Positions 19,282 through 27,838 of a stretch of DNA of 64,000 nucleotides are shown piece after piece; position 1 is the first letter of the stretch, and each line of letters starts with the position of its first letter. The stretch is from contig CM000151.3 in assembly GCA_000004695.1 (NCBI GenBank), positions 6,240,001 through 6,304,000 on the forward strand, read 5' to 3'. The DNA is from Dictyostelium discoideum (taxonomy: Eukaryota). The translations under genes and the position numbers were made by a program. Below the pieces are notes generated by a model that was not told the DNA's origin, did no database searches, and saw nothing but the letters and a program-made list of their open reading frames with translations.

Positions 19282-19347
19282 TATAGAACCTTTGAAATTT
19301 TTTTTTTTTTTTAATTTGCAGATTTTATTCATTCATTTAAAAAAAGT

Positions 19348-19406
<59 letters not shown>

Positions 19407-19471
19407 TTCATTTATTTTATTTATTTATTTTATTTTATTTATTTATTCAATTTTTAATTTTATTTAAAAAT

Positions 19472-22432
<2,961 letters not shown>

Positions 22433-22507: not shown

Positions 22508-23184
22508 TTATTCTAAATTTAATTTCATCCAAACTAAATTAGTATTTGTTTTTTTTAATTTTGAATTTCCACCAAATATTCTTAATAAATTTGATACTTT
22601 TTCACTATCATCTATATTGTCTTCATTTTTTTCCTTGCTAATACTACTACTACCACTACTATTACTACTAATACAACTACTAAAATTAGAAGTTGAAATT
22701 GGATCACATTCAATATAACCAAATGTTTTATAAAATTCTTGTTTATCATTTGTTGAAAGATATGATATTTTATAACCTTTTTTTTTCATTATTTTATGAC
22801 CTTCTATCATTAATAATTTACCATACCCTTTTCCCCTATATTTTGATTTAATTAAAACTATAAAAATTAATTAATTTCTGTTTAAAAACTTTTTTTTTTT
22901 TTTTCAAAAAAAAAATTACCATTTTCTAATAATAATGAAACATTTGAATCTTTATCATTATTTAAAACTGTTGAAATTGTTAAACAACCTATAACTTCTT
23001 CAGTTTCTTCTACCGTTAGTTCATCATTTTTTAATTTCATAATTAAATAAAAAGGAAAATTATCATTTGATTTCTCTATTGATGCCTTTCTTGAATATTC
23101 CGATCTGGGCCATTGTGAATTTAATAACTTTATTAATTCTTCTATATATTTATTATCATTGTGTATATATGAAAAAGATATCAT
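22508..23184 (-). CDS. GNAT-family N-acetyltransferase, 2 exons (22920..23184, 22508..22857), about 204 aa
   Basis: Exon 1 reads MISFSYIHNDNKYIEELIKLLNSQWPRSEYS...SLLLEN with donor GTAATT in phase 1; the acceptor is tttatAG; exon 2 reads VLIKSKYRGKGYGKLLMIEGHKIMKKKGYKISYLSTNDKQEFYKTFGY (GNAT motif A R-G-x-G-x-G). Convergent with the TBC gene. Confidence 0.7.
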
Positions 23185-23546
23185 TGCAAAAATTTGTGTT
23201 TTGTAAAATAAATGAATTAAAAAAAAAAAAAAAAAAAAAAGTAAAAAAATAAAAAAAAATTAAATAAAAAATGAAAAATGAAAAACGAGTTATTTTTAGA
23301 ACAAAAAAAAATAAAAAAAAATCTAATTATTTTCACACACATTATACTATGACAAAATTTTTAAAACAAATATAAAACCTATAAAAAAAAAAAATAAAAA
23401 ATAAAAAAAAAAAAAAAGTTAAAATGAAAAAGAAATAATTATTTTCTTTCTTTTAATTTATTTTATTTATTTTAATGCAATTCCGAGTTATTAATTGTAT
23501 TTTTTTATGTAGAATTTTATTTTTTTTATTTGTTCATTTTATTAGA

Positions 23547-23702
23547 ATGAGTAATTCTCAAGCTAATTGTATATTTTCTTTTGTTGATGGAACTAAATTT
23601 AATTTAACATCGCTTAGATTAGAGTAAATATTTTATTTAAATAATAATATTATTAATTTAAATAATAATTAATAAAAAACAATAAGGACTAATTAATTTT
23701 TA

Positions 23703-23742
<40 letters not shown>

Positions 23743-25732
23743 ATAATAATAACTCTCATAAAGAGGAGGTGGATTTTATAACTCAAGTTTTTCAAATGAA
23801 AATATAGATTATAATATAATATTTAATATTTGTGGTAATGTTGAATATTGTAGAGGTATTGATGGAAATGGTGATGGGAGTACATTTTTAGAGAGTTCAC
23901 AATCATGTCAAGTATTTCCAAATGATGAAACAACATTTCAAACTGGTGTATTAAATAAAGAGCATGCATATAAAACATCAACTGGTATGGTTTTAGTATA
24001 TACATCAGAAATTGAATATCCAACATGCACCTATGACAATCATAAATCAAATCAATTAATTATTAATTGTGATGAAAATCAAGAATTTTTAATTGTAAAT
24101 ACAAACAATTCAACCAGACCATGTTTTTATCAAATAACAATAAATTCAAAACATGTCTGTGATAATAATAATAATAATAATAGCAATAGTTCAAGTAGTG
24201 ATTGCAATATCAGTAATAGCAAAAGTAGTAATTGCAATATTAGTAGCAGTATCAATAATAGTAGTAGCAATAGTAGAAGTAGCAATAATAGTAGTAGCAG
24301 TAGTAGTAGCAATAGTAGTGAGAGTAGTGGAAGTGGTGGAAGTGATTGTAGTGTTAATTGTAATGGTAGTAGTGATAGTACAAGTTGGTCATTACCATCA
24401 TTTTCTATACCATCTGATTCATCTGATTGGTTACCATCATTTCCTGGTTCATTACCATCTGATTCATCCGATTGGCAACCATCATTTCCGGGCTCATTAC
24501 CATCTGATTCGTCTGATTCATTGCCATCTTTACCTGGCTCTCTACCTGATTCGTCTGGTTCATTACCATCGTTTCCTGGTTCATTACCATCTGGATCATC
24601 TGATTCATTGCCATCTTTTCCTGGCTCTCTACCATCTGATTCGTCTGATTCATTACCATCATTTCCTGGTTCTTTACCATCTGGATCATCTGATTCATTA
24701 CCATCGTTTCCTGGTTCTTTGCCATCTGGATCATCTGATTCATTACCATCTTTTCCTGGATCTTTTCCATCTGGATCATCAGACACATTATCATCGTTTC
24801 CTGGATCATTACCATCTGATTCATCTGACCCATTATCATCATCACCGGGTTCATTACCATCCGATTCCTCTGGATCATTTCCATCGCTTACTGGTTCATC
24901 AGATCTGTCATCAACAATCACTACCACACCAACAACACCGACAACAACTCCAAATTTTACATTTACCCCAACAATACCAACTCTAACACCAATAAATACC
25001 ACCTTTCCAACTTTAACCCCAACAAATACTTCTTTTCCAACTTTAACTCCAACAAACTCTTCCACCCCAACTCCAACAAATTCTTCCACCCCAACTCCAA
25101 CAAATTCTTCCACCCCAACTCCAACAAATTCTTCCACCCCAACTCCTACCAATTCTTCAGATCCTTCATCAGCATCCTCATTTAACTCCTCTTCATCATT
25201 TAATTCTACATCATCAAGTAATTCCACAATATCACCATCATCATCATCTTTAAATAACTCAACGTCTTCATTTAATTCAACATCATTAAGTAATTCAACA
25301 TCATCAAGTAATTCCACAATTTCTTCATCATCACTGAATAATACATCATCTATTTCTGAAGATTTTTTAGTTTCATGTTATTTTACAAACTCAACTATAT
25401 TTGTTAAAAATAAAGGAAATGAATTTATAAAATGTAAAGGGTATGGTTCAACAAATTGCACAAATCAAAATACTCTTTGTGAAAGTAAAAAAAACAATAC
25501 CGCAATTAATTGTTGGGGTAAAAAAGAAATTAATTGTAAAGGTTCTTCGATAACTTGTTCAGTATTTGGTAAATTAACTTGTACAAATGCAAATAACTTG
25601 GTAGAATTAGTCAGTGATGAAACTCAAAGTATTAGCGAAAGTGATGGTTATATTTTAAACAATTTTCAGAATCCAAAAAATTATTTTTCATTTTTAATAT
25701 TTATTATTTTTTCCATTAAAATTATTATTTAA
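23547..25732 (+). CDS. MRH (mannose-6-phosphate-receptor-homology) domain protein with Ser/Pro/Thr-rich tandem repeats and a C-terminal GPI-anchor-like signal; at least 2 exons (23547..23623, 23788..25732). The 5' end is unresolved (no signal peptide found)
   Basis: MSNSQANCIFSFVDGTKFNLTSLRL with donor GTAAAT; after the intron come ...YNIIFNICGNVEYCRG...CQVF...LVYTSEIEYPTCTYDN...LIINCDENQEFLIVNTNNSTRPCFYQITINSKHVC (MRH/CIMR Cys pattern). Then about 10 copies of the 15-aa repeat LPSFPGSLPSDSSDS (24395-24900), (TPTPTNSS)n, a Cys-rich module, and the hydrophobic tail FSFLIFIIFSIKIII. Confidence 0.55.
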
Positions 25733-25976: not shown

Positions 25977-27838
25977 TTAATCATCAGCATCGGTTGGACC
26001 CATTTTTGGTGGTTTTGGACCACCAGCTGGTTTAGACATAATGATTTGATCGACTCTTAAAACGGTGTTAGCAGTGTTTGTAGCTAATTTAATTGCGAAA
26101 AGTTTTGAAGCAAAAGCGTCTAAAACATCCATTTCGAGTACAGATTTTGGTTGACCAGATTCAATATCTAAACCATAATTGGTATTACCTTTGGTATGAG
26201 CTGCATAAATATTTGAGATTGCTTTTGAGGAGTCGTGACCACTAGTTTCAGCAAGAGTTCTTGGAATGATTTCGAAAGCTTCAGCGTATTGACGAATTGA
26301 ATATTGAGAGAGACCTGGTGTAGCATCGGCAAAAGCTTGGAGTTTACGTGAGGCTTCAATTTCAAAAGCACCAGCACCAGCTAAGAATCTACCATCTTTA
26401 CACATACCTTTGAAAACGTTGACACCATCATCGATGGCACGTTCAATATCATCGAGAATGTTATTGGTTGAACCACGAACTACAATGGTGGAGATTTCAC
26501 TTTCTTCTTTATTTTGACGGAAAATACAACATTTGGTTGAACCGATCTCTTCAACGAGTACTTCATCACAGTAACCCAATTCCTCAGGGATAGGGGCACC
26601 CAATTTAACTAATGGAGTTGCACCGATTGCTTTACAAACACGACGTAATTGGAATTTAGATTGAATACGAACCAACATGATTTTGAATCTTTCAATGTAA
26701 TGTAAAGCCAATTCGGAAACGGTTGAACCAGAGATGATCACTTTGACACCGGTATTTGCGATGGCAGTGATTGTCTCTCTGATTGAATCTTCCTCACCTT
26801 TGGAGAATTGTAACAATTCATCCTCGTTGGTGATCAATACTTTACCAGTGGTTTCAGTACGACCTAAATCGATACCCATTGTGAAAACGGCGATTTTTGC
26901 TTTCTCCATTCTTTTGATGGTACCTTCGGCATCCATTGGGATGACGAAACCTTTGATTACACTTGTATCAGTTACGCCACCACCTGGAATCTTGGTGACT
27001 CTAACATTATCGATATTGAAATTAACTGCTTTCTTTGGTAAAACTTGAAGACATGCATTGGTGATAATCTCTGATAAAAATTCCTCATATCCATATTGTT
27101 TACTTGCGATGGCTGATTTCAAACATTTTGTAACCTCCTTCTTATCTGTAATATCCTTTAAATTGTATACAATCATTGATTCAATAATCTCTTGAAGTTT
27201 AGCACCTGCTTTTTCAAAACCAGTTATAATTTCACTTGGGTGAAGTCCCATCTCTAATAAAGTTGCTGCTTTTTGTAAAAATTCACCTGTTAATGTAACA
27301 ACATAATTTGTACCATCTCCCATCTAAAAATTATTAATAATAAAAAAATAATAATAATAATAATAATAAATATTGAAAATATTATAATTCAATTTTAAAA
27401 ATTGTATTGATTTGTAATTTTTTTTTTTTTTTTAGAAATAATAAATTTTTTAGGTTAAAATTTTCATTTAAATAAAAATAAAAATGGTGGTTAGTAATCA
27501 ATATTGTAGTGTTTAGATTTATAAATTTTGAGAGAGAGAAAAAAAAAAAAAAAAAAAAAAATATTACATACTTCTTGTTCTTGCATTTGAGCAGCCATAA
27601 CCAACATTTTTGCAGCTGGATGAATAACATCTAATTCTCTAATGATGGTTGCGGCATCATTTGTAACAAATAATTTCTCTAAATGATTGATGATCATTTT
27701 ATTCATACCATTTGGACCTAATGATGTTCTTGTAATCTCTGATAATTGTTTGGTTGCATCAATATTTCTTAAGATTGCTTCATCTTTGCCTGCAAAATGC
27801 TTTGCACCATCTTTTAACATATCAGTTAATCCTAACAT
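25977..27838 (-). CDS. cct8: T-complex chaperonin subunit theta (CCT8), 2 exons (27572..27838, 25977..27323), about 537 aa
   Basis: Exon 1 reads MLGLTDMLKDGAKHFAGKDEAILRNIDATKQLSEITRTSLGPNGMNKMIINHLEKLFVTNDAATIIRELDVIHPAAKMLVMAAQMQEQE with donor GTATGT. Exon 2 (acceptor tttttAG) reads MGDGTNYVV... and ends ...LRVDQIIMSKPAGGPKPP, the diagnostic CCT-theta C-terminus. Collinear with human CCT8. Confidence 0.9.

Follow-up and report, generated by a model that had tools for sequence, protein, structure and literature searches.

We propose that a gene on the forward strand of the 64,000-nucleotide stretch of DNA analysed here (the window) probably encodes a GPI-anchored, glycosylated surface protein, in which a domain of the MRH fold with a non-canonical ligand is carried on a stalk; this is the best overall explanation of the features described below. 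The gene consists of two exons (23475-23623 and 23764-25732, + strand), and its spliced open reading frame of 2118 nt is intact and encodes a protein of 705 aa. The main value of the analysis lies in a corrected annotation, in which the start is moved 72 nt upstream. What looked like a puzzling 'cytosolic MRH protein' thereby becomes an ordinary glycoprotein of the secretory pathway, probably GPI-anchored, whose features are arranged along the DNA as follows.

23475..23564, + strand: start codon and predicted signal peptide (aa 1-30, MQFRVINCIFLCRILFFLFVHFIRMSNSQA), with likely cleavage after S-Q-A
23565..24163, + strand: MRH/CI-MPR-type domain (aa 31-183), split by the intron, with eight cysteines at residues 32, 73, 79, 98, 138, 152, 170 and 182
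23624-23763, + strand: intron of 140 nt (GTAAAT...AAAG; 6.4% GC) with a 36-nt run of A inside
24164..24391, + strand: Asn/Ser-rich low-complexity linker with four cysteines, many N-x-S/T sequons and degenerate 12-15-bp arrays (TRF)
24392..24922, + strand: block of 15-aa repeats, consisting of 11 units of 13-15 aa with the consensus LPSFPGSLPS[D/G]SSDS and a degenerate 12th unit
24923..25158, + strand: Thr/Pro-rich stalk with 30-bp arrays (TRF), ending in about five copies of TPTPTNSS
25159..25375, + strand: Ser/Asn/Thr-rich segment with N-x-S/T sequons throughout (SSFNSTSSSNST...) and degenerate 18/36/45-bp arrays (TRF)
25376..25582, + strand: membrane-proximal Cys-rich module (aa 588-656) with eight cysteines and an internal duplicated C-x7-C-x6-C
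25634..25732, + strand: predicted GPI-attachment signal, comprising the small residues S674/S676, a polar spacer, the hydrophobic residues aa 690-705 and the TAA codon

The structure of the gene is directly visible in the DNA. Removal of the GT..AG intron restores the reading frame, which runs to a TAA stop codon at 25730-25732, and the resulting exon junction, LRLE/GGGFY, rebuilds the family motif L-x-L-x-x-G-G-x-Y, which in the homologues reads L-x-L-P-N-G-G-Y-Y. The exons have a GC content of 25-44%, whereas that of the intron is about 6% and that of the flanking DNA 3-10%. This is an intact protein-coding gene of the ordinary dictyostelid type, and the original prediction had correctly located its intron, the boundaries of exon 2 and, as the restored frame confirms, the 3′ end of exon 1. 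A neighbouring gene, the product of which is a RabGAP-TBC protein, lies upstream in divergent orientation on the minus strand and starts at 23184, leaving an A-rich gap of 290 bp between the two genes; the present gene thus sits between this TBC/EF-hand gene and cct8. An upstream ORF of four codons begins at 23425 and could fall in the 5′ UTR. Long antisense ORFs (24130-25317, 24153-24986 and 24405-24884) were dismissed as by-products of the repeat composition. The window as a whole has a GC content of 24.5%. Poly-Asn tracts occur in it, its short introns are very AT-rich, and its genes are compactly arranged in divergent and convergent orientations, features that together mark a Dictyostelium-type genome; no tRNA genes were found in it.

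Where does translation begin? The original prediction placed the start at 23547, detected no signal peptide in the resulting protein and proposed that a 5′ exon was missing. We noted that 24 in-frame codons are open upstream of 23547, up to the earliest ATG of the ORF, at 23475, which immediately follows a stop codon. The extension that it adds, MQFRVINCIFLCRILFFLFVHFIR, joined to the MSNSQA that follows, has the features of a signal peptide: a basic (Arg) n-region, a core with a mean Kyte-Doolittle value of 2.5 over 15 aa, and Ser and Ala at positions -3 and -1. The first cysteine of the MRH domain lies two residues past the predicted cleavage site, and in the homologues P0001, P0003 and P0010 a signal peptide occupies the same position, just ahead of the first cysteine of the domain. 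The signal peptide is a prediction from these features and their context. Hydrophobic segments occur only twice in the whole protein, one at each extreme end.

T-rich non-coding DNA translates into Phe/Ile/Leu-rich, and hence hydrophobic, peptide. We found that, in comparably AT-rich parts of the window, 21 of 254 ATGs (about 8%) open 24 codons that are equally hydrophobic; the GC content of the signal-peptide region is 16.7%, as against 10.3% in intergenic DNA. Because of this chance rate, the signal peptide is unproven by sequence alone, and the case for it therefore rests also on its context, namely the cysteines, the sequons, the stalk, the anchor signal and the 290-bp gap. No other signal-peptide exon or hydrophobic ORF was found in that gap, and a hydrophobic + strand ORF at 23082 was rejected as a 5′ exon because it is antisense within a coding exon of the neighbour. 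Since the extension is in frame and contiguous with exon 1, and the gap contains no hydrophobic ORF, a missing 5′ exon is neither needed nor likely. We infer that translation starts at ATG 23475 rather than at 23547.

If translation did start at 23547, the protein would be cytosolic; alternatively, the gene might be a decaying pseudogene. The chance rate of about 8% would be in keeping with such a reading, which we nevertheless regard as extremely unlikely. An intact spliced ORF of 2118 nt at a GC content of 24.5% is no chance product. A domain that needs four disulfides, 35 N-x-S/T sequons in the whole protein, a mucin-like stalk and an anchor signal would be senseless in the cytosol, and the signal peptides of the homologues, located at the same position, also argue against a cytosolic product. 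The case against a pseudogene is strengthened by the repeat units, to which we return below.

The N-terminal domain has the MPR/MRH fold and belongs to that family. The Pfam family Man-6-P_recep (PF02157) gave 26.7 bits with the domain alone and 24.1 bits with the full protein, the cut-off being 25.4. A phmmer search of the PDB with the single domain returned no MPR and only noise (e.g., RNase A tandem constructs), and a family profile was therefore needed. An exhaustive HMMER search against 1.8e9 representatives yielded ten true relatives (26-37% identity), seven of which bear dictyostelid names, the other three being environmental sequences; P0004, an ankyrin-repeat protein, was a spurious match and was excluded. 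A separate homologous-protein search, conducted with the domain and then with a 19-sequence alignment, gave no matches, and neither did exact look-ups with the 705-aa and 681-aa models or with the products of four neighbouring ORFs. The relatives of the domain are about 25-40% identical to it (34-36% for the closest found), some of them carry 2-7 tandem copies of the MRH domain, and several from dictyostelids bear the UniProt name 'MRH domain-containing protein'. A profile built from 19 domains matched the bovine CI-MPR with an E-value of 4.8e-78 over at least 12 repeats, domains 9, 5 and 3 being the best, and it also matched the CD-MPR (8e-5), glucosidase II beta (7e-4) and erlectin. Members of the family match the Pfam entries ATG27, CIMR, PRKCSH_1 and Man-6-P_recep.

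The structure model agrees with the profile. Built with the 19-domain alignment, the AF2 model of the domain reached a pLDDT of 90.9 and a pTM of 0.88 and displays the flattened beta-barrel of the MRH fold, about 150 residues in size; all 45 of the 45 Foldseek matches at E<=1e-3 were MPR or MRH structures. Eight conserved cysteines are present in each MRH domain (PMC8717582), and each of the eight cysteines of the present domain is conserved in 15-19 of the 19 aligned domains. Profile, Foldseek matches and cysteine framework are in accord, and the MRH assignment of the original prediction, which HMM searches might have failed to support, is instead strongly supported by the family profile and the structure model.

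Does the domain bind mannose 6-phosphate? The Gln/Arg/Glu/Tyr tetrad makes contact with the mannose ring and is common to all mannose-binding MRH domains (P-type lectins, OS-9 and glucosidase II beta). It was mapped by HMM alignment to domain 3 of the CI-MPR, in which it comprises Q392, R435, E460 and Y465 (6um1 numbering), corresponding to Q348, R391, E416 and Y421 of the mature protein. The corresponding residues in the query are Gln99, Lys144 (for Arg), Thr167 (for Glu) and Tyr172, so that only the Gln and the Tyr are kept, and there is neither an Arg between Cys138 and Cys152 nor an Asp or Glu in the 14 residues before Cys170. Among the 19 dictyostelid domains, the Gln is present in 10, the Arg in 13, the Tyr in 15, and the Glu, in its canonical column, in only 2. 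Because two of the four tetrad residues are replaced and no Arg or acidic residue lies nearby, lectin activity is doubtful, and canonical binding of mannose or mannose 6-phosphate is most likely absent. In most CI-MPR repeats, too, the tetrad is absent, and these repeats either have other ligands or bind nothing; the loss of the Arg and the Glu speaks only against the canonical mode, not against all sugar binding. The original prediction had suggested an adhesion or lectin molecule; our results are consistent with a membrane-anchored glycoprotein of the secretory pathway, whereas the replacements at Lys144 and Thr167 make the label of lectin questionable.

The opposite view would be that the protein is a functional P-type lectin, either for modified mannose on Dictyostelium glycoproteins (Man-6-P-OMe, Man-6-sulfate) or for high-mannose glycans, and thus truly equivalent in function to the mannose 6-phosphate receptors. 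The strong homology to the CI-MPR repeats, in both fold and profile, and the retention of Gln99 and Tyr172 would fit such a role, and the CI-MPR itself reportedly recognises the methylphosphomannose of Dictyostelium, the relevant paper being that of Marron-Terada et al. in 2000, which is listed in PMC7481795. We consider this view quite improbable. Conservative Arg-to-Lys changes abolish binding in the CI-MPR, and here an Arg-to-Lys replacement is combined with a Glu-to-Thr replacement, with no substitute for either residue nearby. Moreover, a GPI-anchored protein with no cytosolic tail would have no adaptor-binding signals for sorting from the Golgi to the lysosome. The importance of the arginine is also evident from the CI-MPR, in which Arg391 (R391) is essential (PMC7481795).

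At the opposite end of the protein, the last 16 residues (YFSFLIFIIFSIKIII) form its most hydrophobic segment. The protein ends ...FSFLIFIIFSIKIII-stop, inside the hydrophobic stretch, with no residues after it and no cytosolic tail, and it lacks the arrangement expected of a sorting receptor, in which a type I span leads into a cytosolic tail that bears adaptor-binding motifs. A cluster of small residues, S674-E-S676-D-G, is separated from the tail by a spacer of about 11 residues, and the putative omega site within it (S674-E-S or S676-D-G) was picked by eye. A short terminal hydrophobic run with a small-residue cluster upstream is typical of GPI signals. The relatives P0010 and P0002 end in a similar manner, with a Ser/Thr/Pro stalk and then a terminal hydrophobic tail. 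We also observed that the hydrophobic tail includes a Lys (K702) and that the spacer, if counted from S676, is rather long.

Could the same architecture instead be held by a permanent transmembrane anchor, as in a type I protein with essentially no cytosolic tail? A hydrophobic segment at the extreme C-terminus is compatible with such an anchor, and the candidate omega site was, as stated, chosen by eye. However, the run is only about 16 residues in length, is broken by Lys702 and is short for a stable span; in addition, nothing follows it, and the small-residue cluster lies 12-14 residues upstream, as would be the case for an omega region. We regard a transmembrane anchor as unlikely, and the C-terminus, judged by its residues, fits a GPI-attachment signal better than it fits a transmembrane helix.

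Both a Cys-rich module and a GPI-like hydrophobic tail had been proposed originally, and both are borne out by the eight cysteines at aa 588-656 and by the hydrophobic stretch at the extreme C-terminus. The Cys-rich module had no match in Pfam or in the PDB, and BLAST revealed no paralogue of it in the window or among the homologues. Its AF2 model, made from the single sequence, had a pLDDT of 51 and is unreliable for a fold search.

The region between the MRH domain and the Cys-rich module is a mucin-like repetitive stalk, as had been predicted. Two arrays detected by TRF dominate it. The first, at 24408-24899, has a period of 45 bp, 11.0 copies, 81% matches and a score of 536, and in register it encodes nine units of 15 aa, one of 13 aa and one of 14 aa, plus the degenerate twelfth. 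The second, at 25045-25158, has a period of 24 bp, 4.8 copies and 96% matches and encodes TPTPTNSS, in agreement with the five copies of that unit originally reported. Of the 180 aa of the repeat segment, 67 are Ser and 33 are Pro, a composition that makes it a Ser/Thr/Pro-rich tandem-repeat stalk. The whole protein has 20 luminal-type cysteines (8 in the MRH domain, 4 in the linker and 8 in the C-terminal module).

The 45-bp units had been described as about ten perfect or near-perfect repeats. Eleven copies do exist, but they are near-perfect at the peptide level only: several units have the same amino-acid sequence (e.g., LPSFPGSLPSGSSDS, which occurs three times), whereas at the DNA level the nine clean 15-codon units are pairwise 64-96% identical, with three units mutually 96% identical. 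Codon differences between the units were synonymous in 159 cases and nonsynonymous in 87. This synonymous excess indicates that the repeat peptide is under selection and that the array did not arise by a recent, perfect expansion, and selection on the peptide is a further argument against a pseudogene. The original prediction also expected the block to be highly polymorphic in length. Because the units diverge as DNA, this is less certain than first assumed; polymorphism of the array is possible, since three of its units are 96% identical.

How might such a protein reach and serve the cell surface? From the features described above, we infer signal-peptide cleavage, GPI anchoring, glycosylation, exposure at the cell surface and the kind of ligand, in the following sequence. 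The cleavable signal peptide (aa 1-30) would bring the product into the ER, where it would be heavily N- and O-glycosylated and where its C-terminal hydrophobic peptide would be swapped for a GPI anchor. The mature protein would then be displayed at the exterior of the plasma membrane and perhaps also on membranes of the endocytic pathway. There, a single disulfide-bonded beta-barrel of the CI-MPR type would be held distant from the membrane by a rigid mucin-like stalk of about 400 residues, composed of the Asn/Ser linker, the 11-12 LPSFPGSLPSxSSDS units, the TPTPTNSS units and the Ser/Asn-rich segment, with the small 8-Cys module adjoining the anchor. The distal MRH-fold domain would be the binding module. 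With only Gln99 and Tyr172 of the tetrad kept, it is most likely not a canonical binder of mannose 6-phosphate, and its ligand may be a different glycan or a protein. Since it has no cytosolic tail, the protein cannot, unlike the mammalian MPRs, recruit sorting adaptors on its own, which rules out a role as an MPR-type sorting receptor.

The term 'MRH domain' should accordingly not be read here as mannose-6-phosphate binding, half of the tetrad being missing. This caution has a practical side, as the MRH annotation has already been used to interpret Dictyostelium mutants, for example, that of DDB_G0283243, a D. discoideum gene with the name 'MRH domain-containing protein', in a recent mutant screen (PMC12954983). 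DDB_G0283243 is a candidate for the present gene. Asp413, however, does not map: position 413 is occupied by Ser in our model and by Thr in the short one, Asp occurs no closer than at residues 405 and 417, and no alternative splice site or start codon restores Asp413. The neighbouring cct8 gene may lie on another chromosome. DDB_G0283243 carries an odd GO term in dictyBase, 'Rab GTPase activator', which is suggestive in that the upstream neighbour of the present gene encodes a RabGAP-TBC protein.

The CI-MPR-type domains of dictyostelids form a diverse family, which occurs in single-domain GPI-like forms, in chains of 2-7 domains and in MACPF fusions. To our knowledge, no receptor for lysosomal enzymes or methylphosphomannose has been identified in Dictyostelium. 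One might speculate, at long odds, that these domains represent a lineage-specific expansion, that the family could serve as receptors for methyl-phosphomannose or mannose-6-sulfate marks or as surface lectins for the recognition of prey or kin, and that the present gene would encode a member displayed at the surface, its site altered further by Lys in place of Arg.

The CI-MPR, or IGF2 receptor, has 15 domains, a transmembrane span and a cytosolic sorting tail, in contrast to the one domain, the mucin-like stalk and the GPI-like signal found here; the tetrad is incomplete in the present domain, as it is in the 11 CI-MPR domains without sugar binding. The CD-MPR (PF02157), a type I membrane protein, has 67 aa on the cytosolic side and all four residues of the Gln/Arg/Glu/Tyr site, whereas the present protein has Lys for the Arg, Thr for the Glu and no tail. 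The domains of P0010 (D. citrinum), P0003 and P0008 (D. firmibasis), and P0002 and P0005 (Polysphondylium violaceum) form a common subfamily with it, at 25-40% identity. P0010 shows the same plan in miniature, with a signal peptide, one MRH domain, a Thr/Pro stalk and a terminal hydrophobic tail; other dictyostelid relatives have 2-7 tandem MRH domains or combine the domain with MACPF, beta-helix-like repeats or EGF-like modules, and none is an orthologue. Neither the 15-aa LPSFPGSLPS repeat nor the C-terminal 8-Cys module was seen among the dictyostelid relatives. In another protist, Trichomonas vaginalis, TvMPR-1 to -6 are likewise CI-MPR-type MRH proteins with eight cysteines (PMC8717582); they differ in that their MRH domains number five and that they possess a transmembrane region as well as a short tail in the cytosol, and they have no mucin stalk or GPI signal. 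The overall plan, that is, an N-terminal binding domain, a Ser/Thr/Pro stalk and a GPI signal, resembles that of Dictyostelium PsA and of the fungal Flo/Als/Epa adhesins, which are GPI-anchored stalked surface glycoproteins. Their N-terminal domains are unrelated to the present one, and the likeness would be one of analogy only.

The MRH gene, a two-exon gene encoding an MRH-fold domain, a repeat stalk and a GPI-like tail, lies among the following features:

19292-22432, +: upstream neighbour, coding for an EF-hand-containing RabGAP-TBC protein (Pfam)
22508-23184, -: small, two-exon-looking gene divergent from the MRH gene (ORFs 22882-23184 and 22508-22810)
23425-23439, +: four-codon upstream ORF (ATG AAA AAG AAA TAA)
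23705-23740: uninterrupted 36-nt A run within the 140-nt intron of the MRH gene (TRF)
24130-25317, -; 24153-24986, +; 24405-24884, -: long ORFs in other frames and on the opposite strand, overlapping the repeat block of the MRH gene
25977-27323 and beyond, -: convergent downstream neighbour, the CCT theta gene cct8 (phmmer)

The upstream (RabGAP-TBC) and downstream (cct8) neighbours were identified by homology. The upstream product matched RabGAP-TBC and EF-hand with Pfam E-values of 1.7e-47 and 3e-12, respectively, and carries a poly-Asn tract of ~60 residues close to its C-terminus (about 21990-22190). The cct8 product matched human CCT8 with a phmmer E-value of 2.6e-140; the 5′ part of this gene extends past an intron near 27324, and its stop codon is 245 bp from that of the MRH gene. 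An odd GO term, "Rab GTPase activator", is reported for the D. discoideum MRH gene DDB_G0283243 (PMC12954983). This oddity may be explained by the RabGAP-TBC neighbour, if both genes were formerly merged.

The start codon of the divergent small gene is separated by 290 bp from the inferred start codon of the MRH gene, ATG 23475. Neither of its ORF pieces had a match in a Pfam search, and its C-terminal piece looks acetyltransferase-like by eye (…KQEFYKTFGYIEC…). The four-codon ORF, 50 nt ahead of ATG 23475, would be a uORF of the MRH gene if the transcript includes it. We rejected the three ORFs overlapping the repeat block as genes, regarding them as composition artefacts of the Ser/Pro/Thr-coding repeats.

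Striking domain architectures were observed among homologues within the dictyostelid MRH subfamily, all of them outside the window. P0001, from a 4-kb metagenome contig, contains seven MRH domains in tandem, and P0006 and P0008 are proteins of 2100-3200 aa that begin with three to four such domains. In P0002, from P. violaceum, MRH domains occur together with repeat blocks, an EGF-like module and a GPI-like tail, and P0011, from Heterostelium album, unites MACPF and MRH in one protein.
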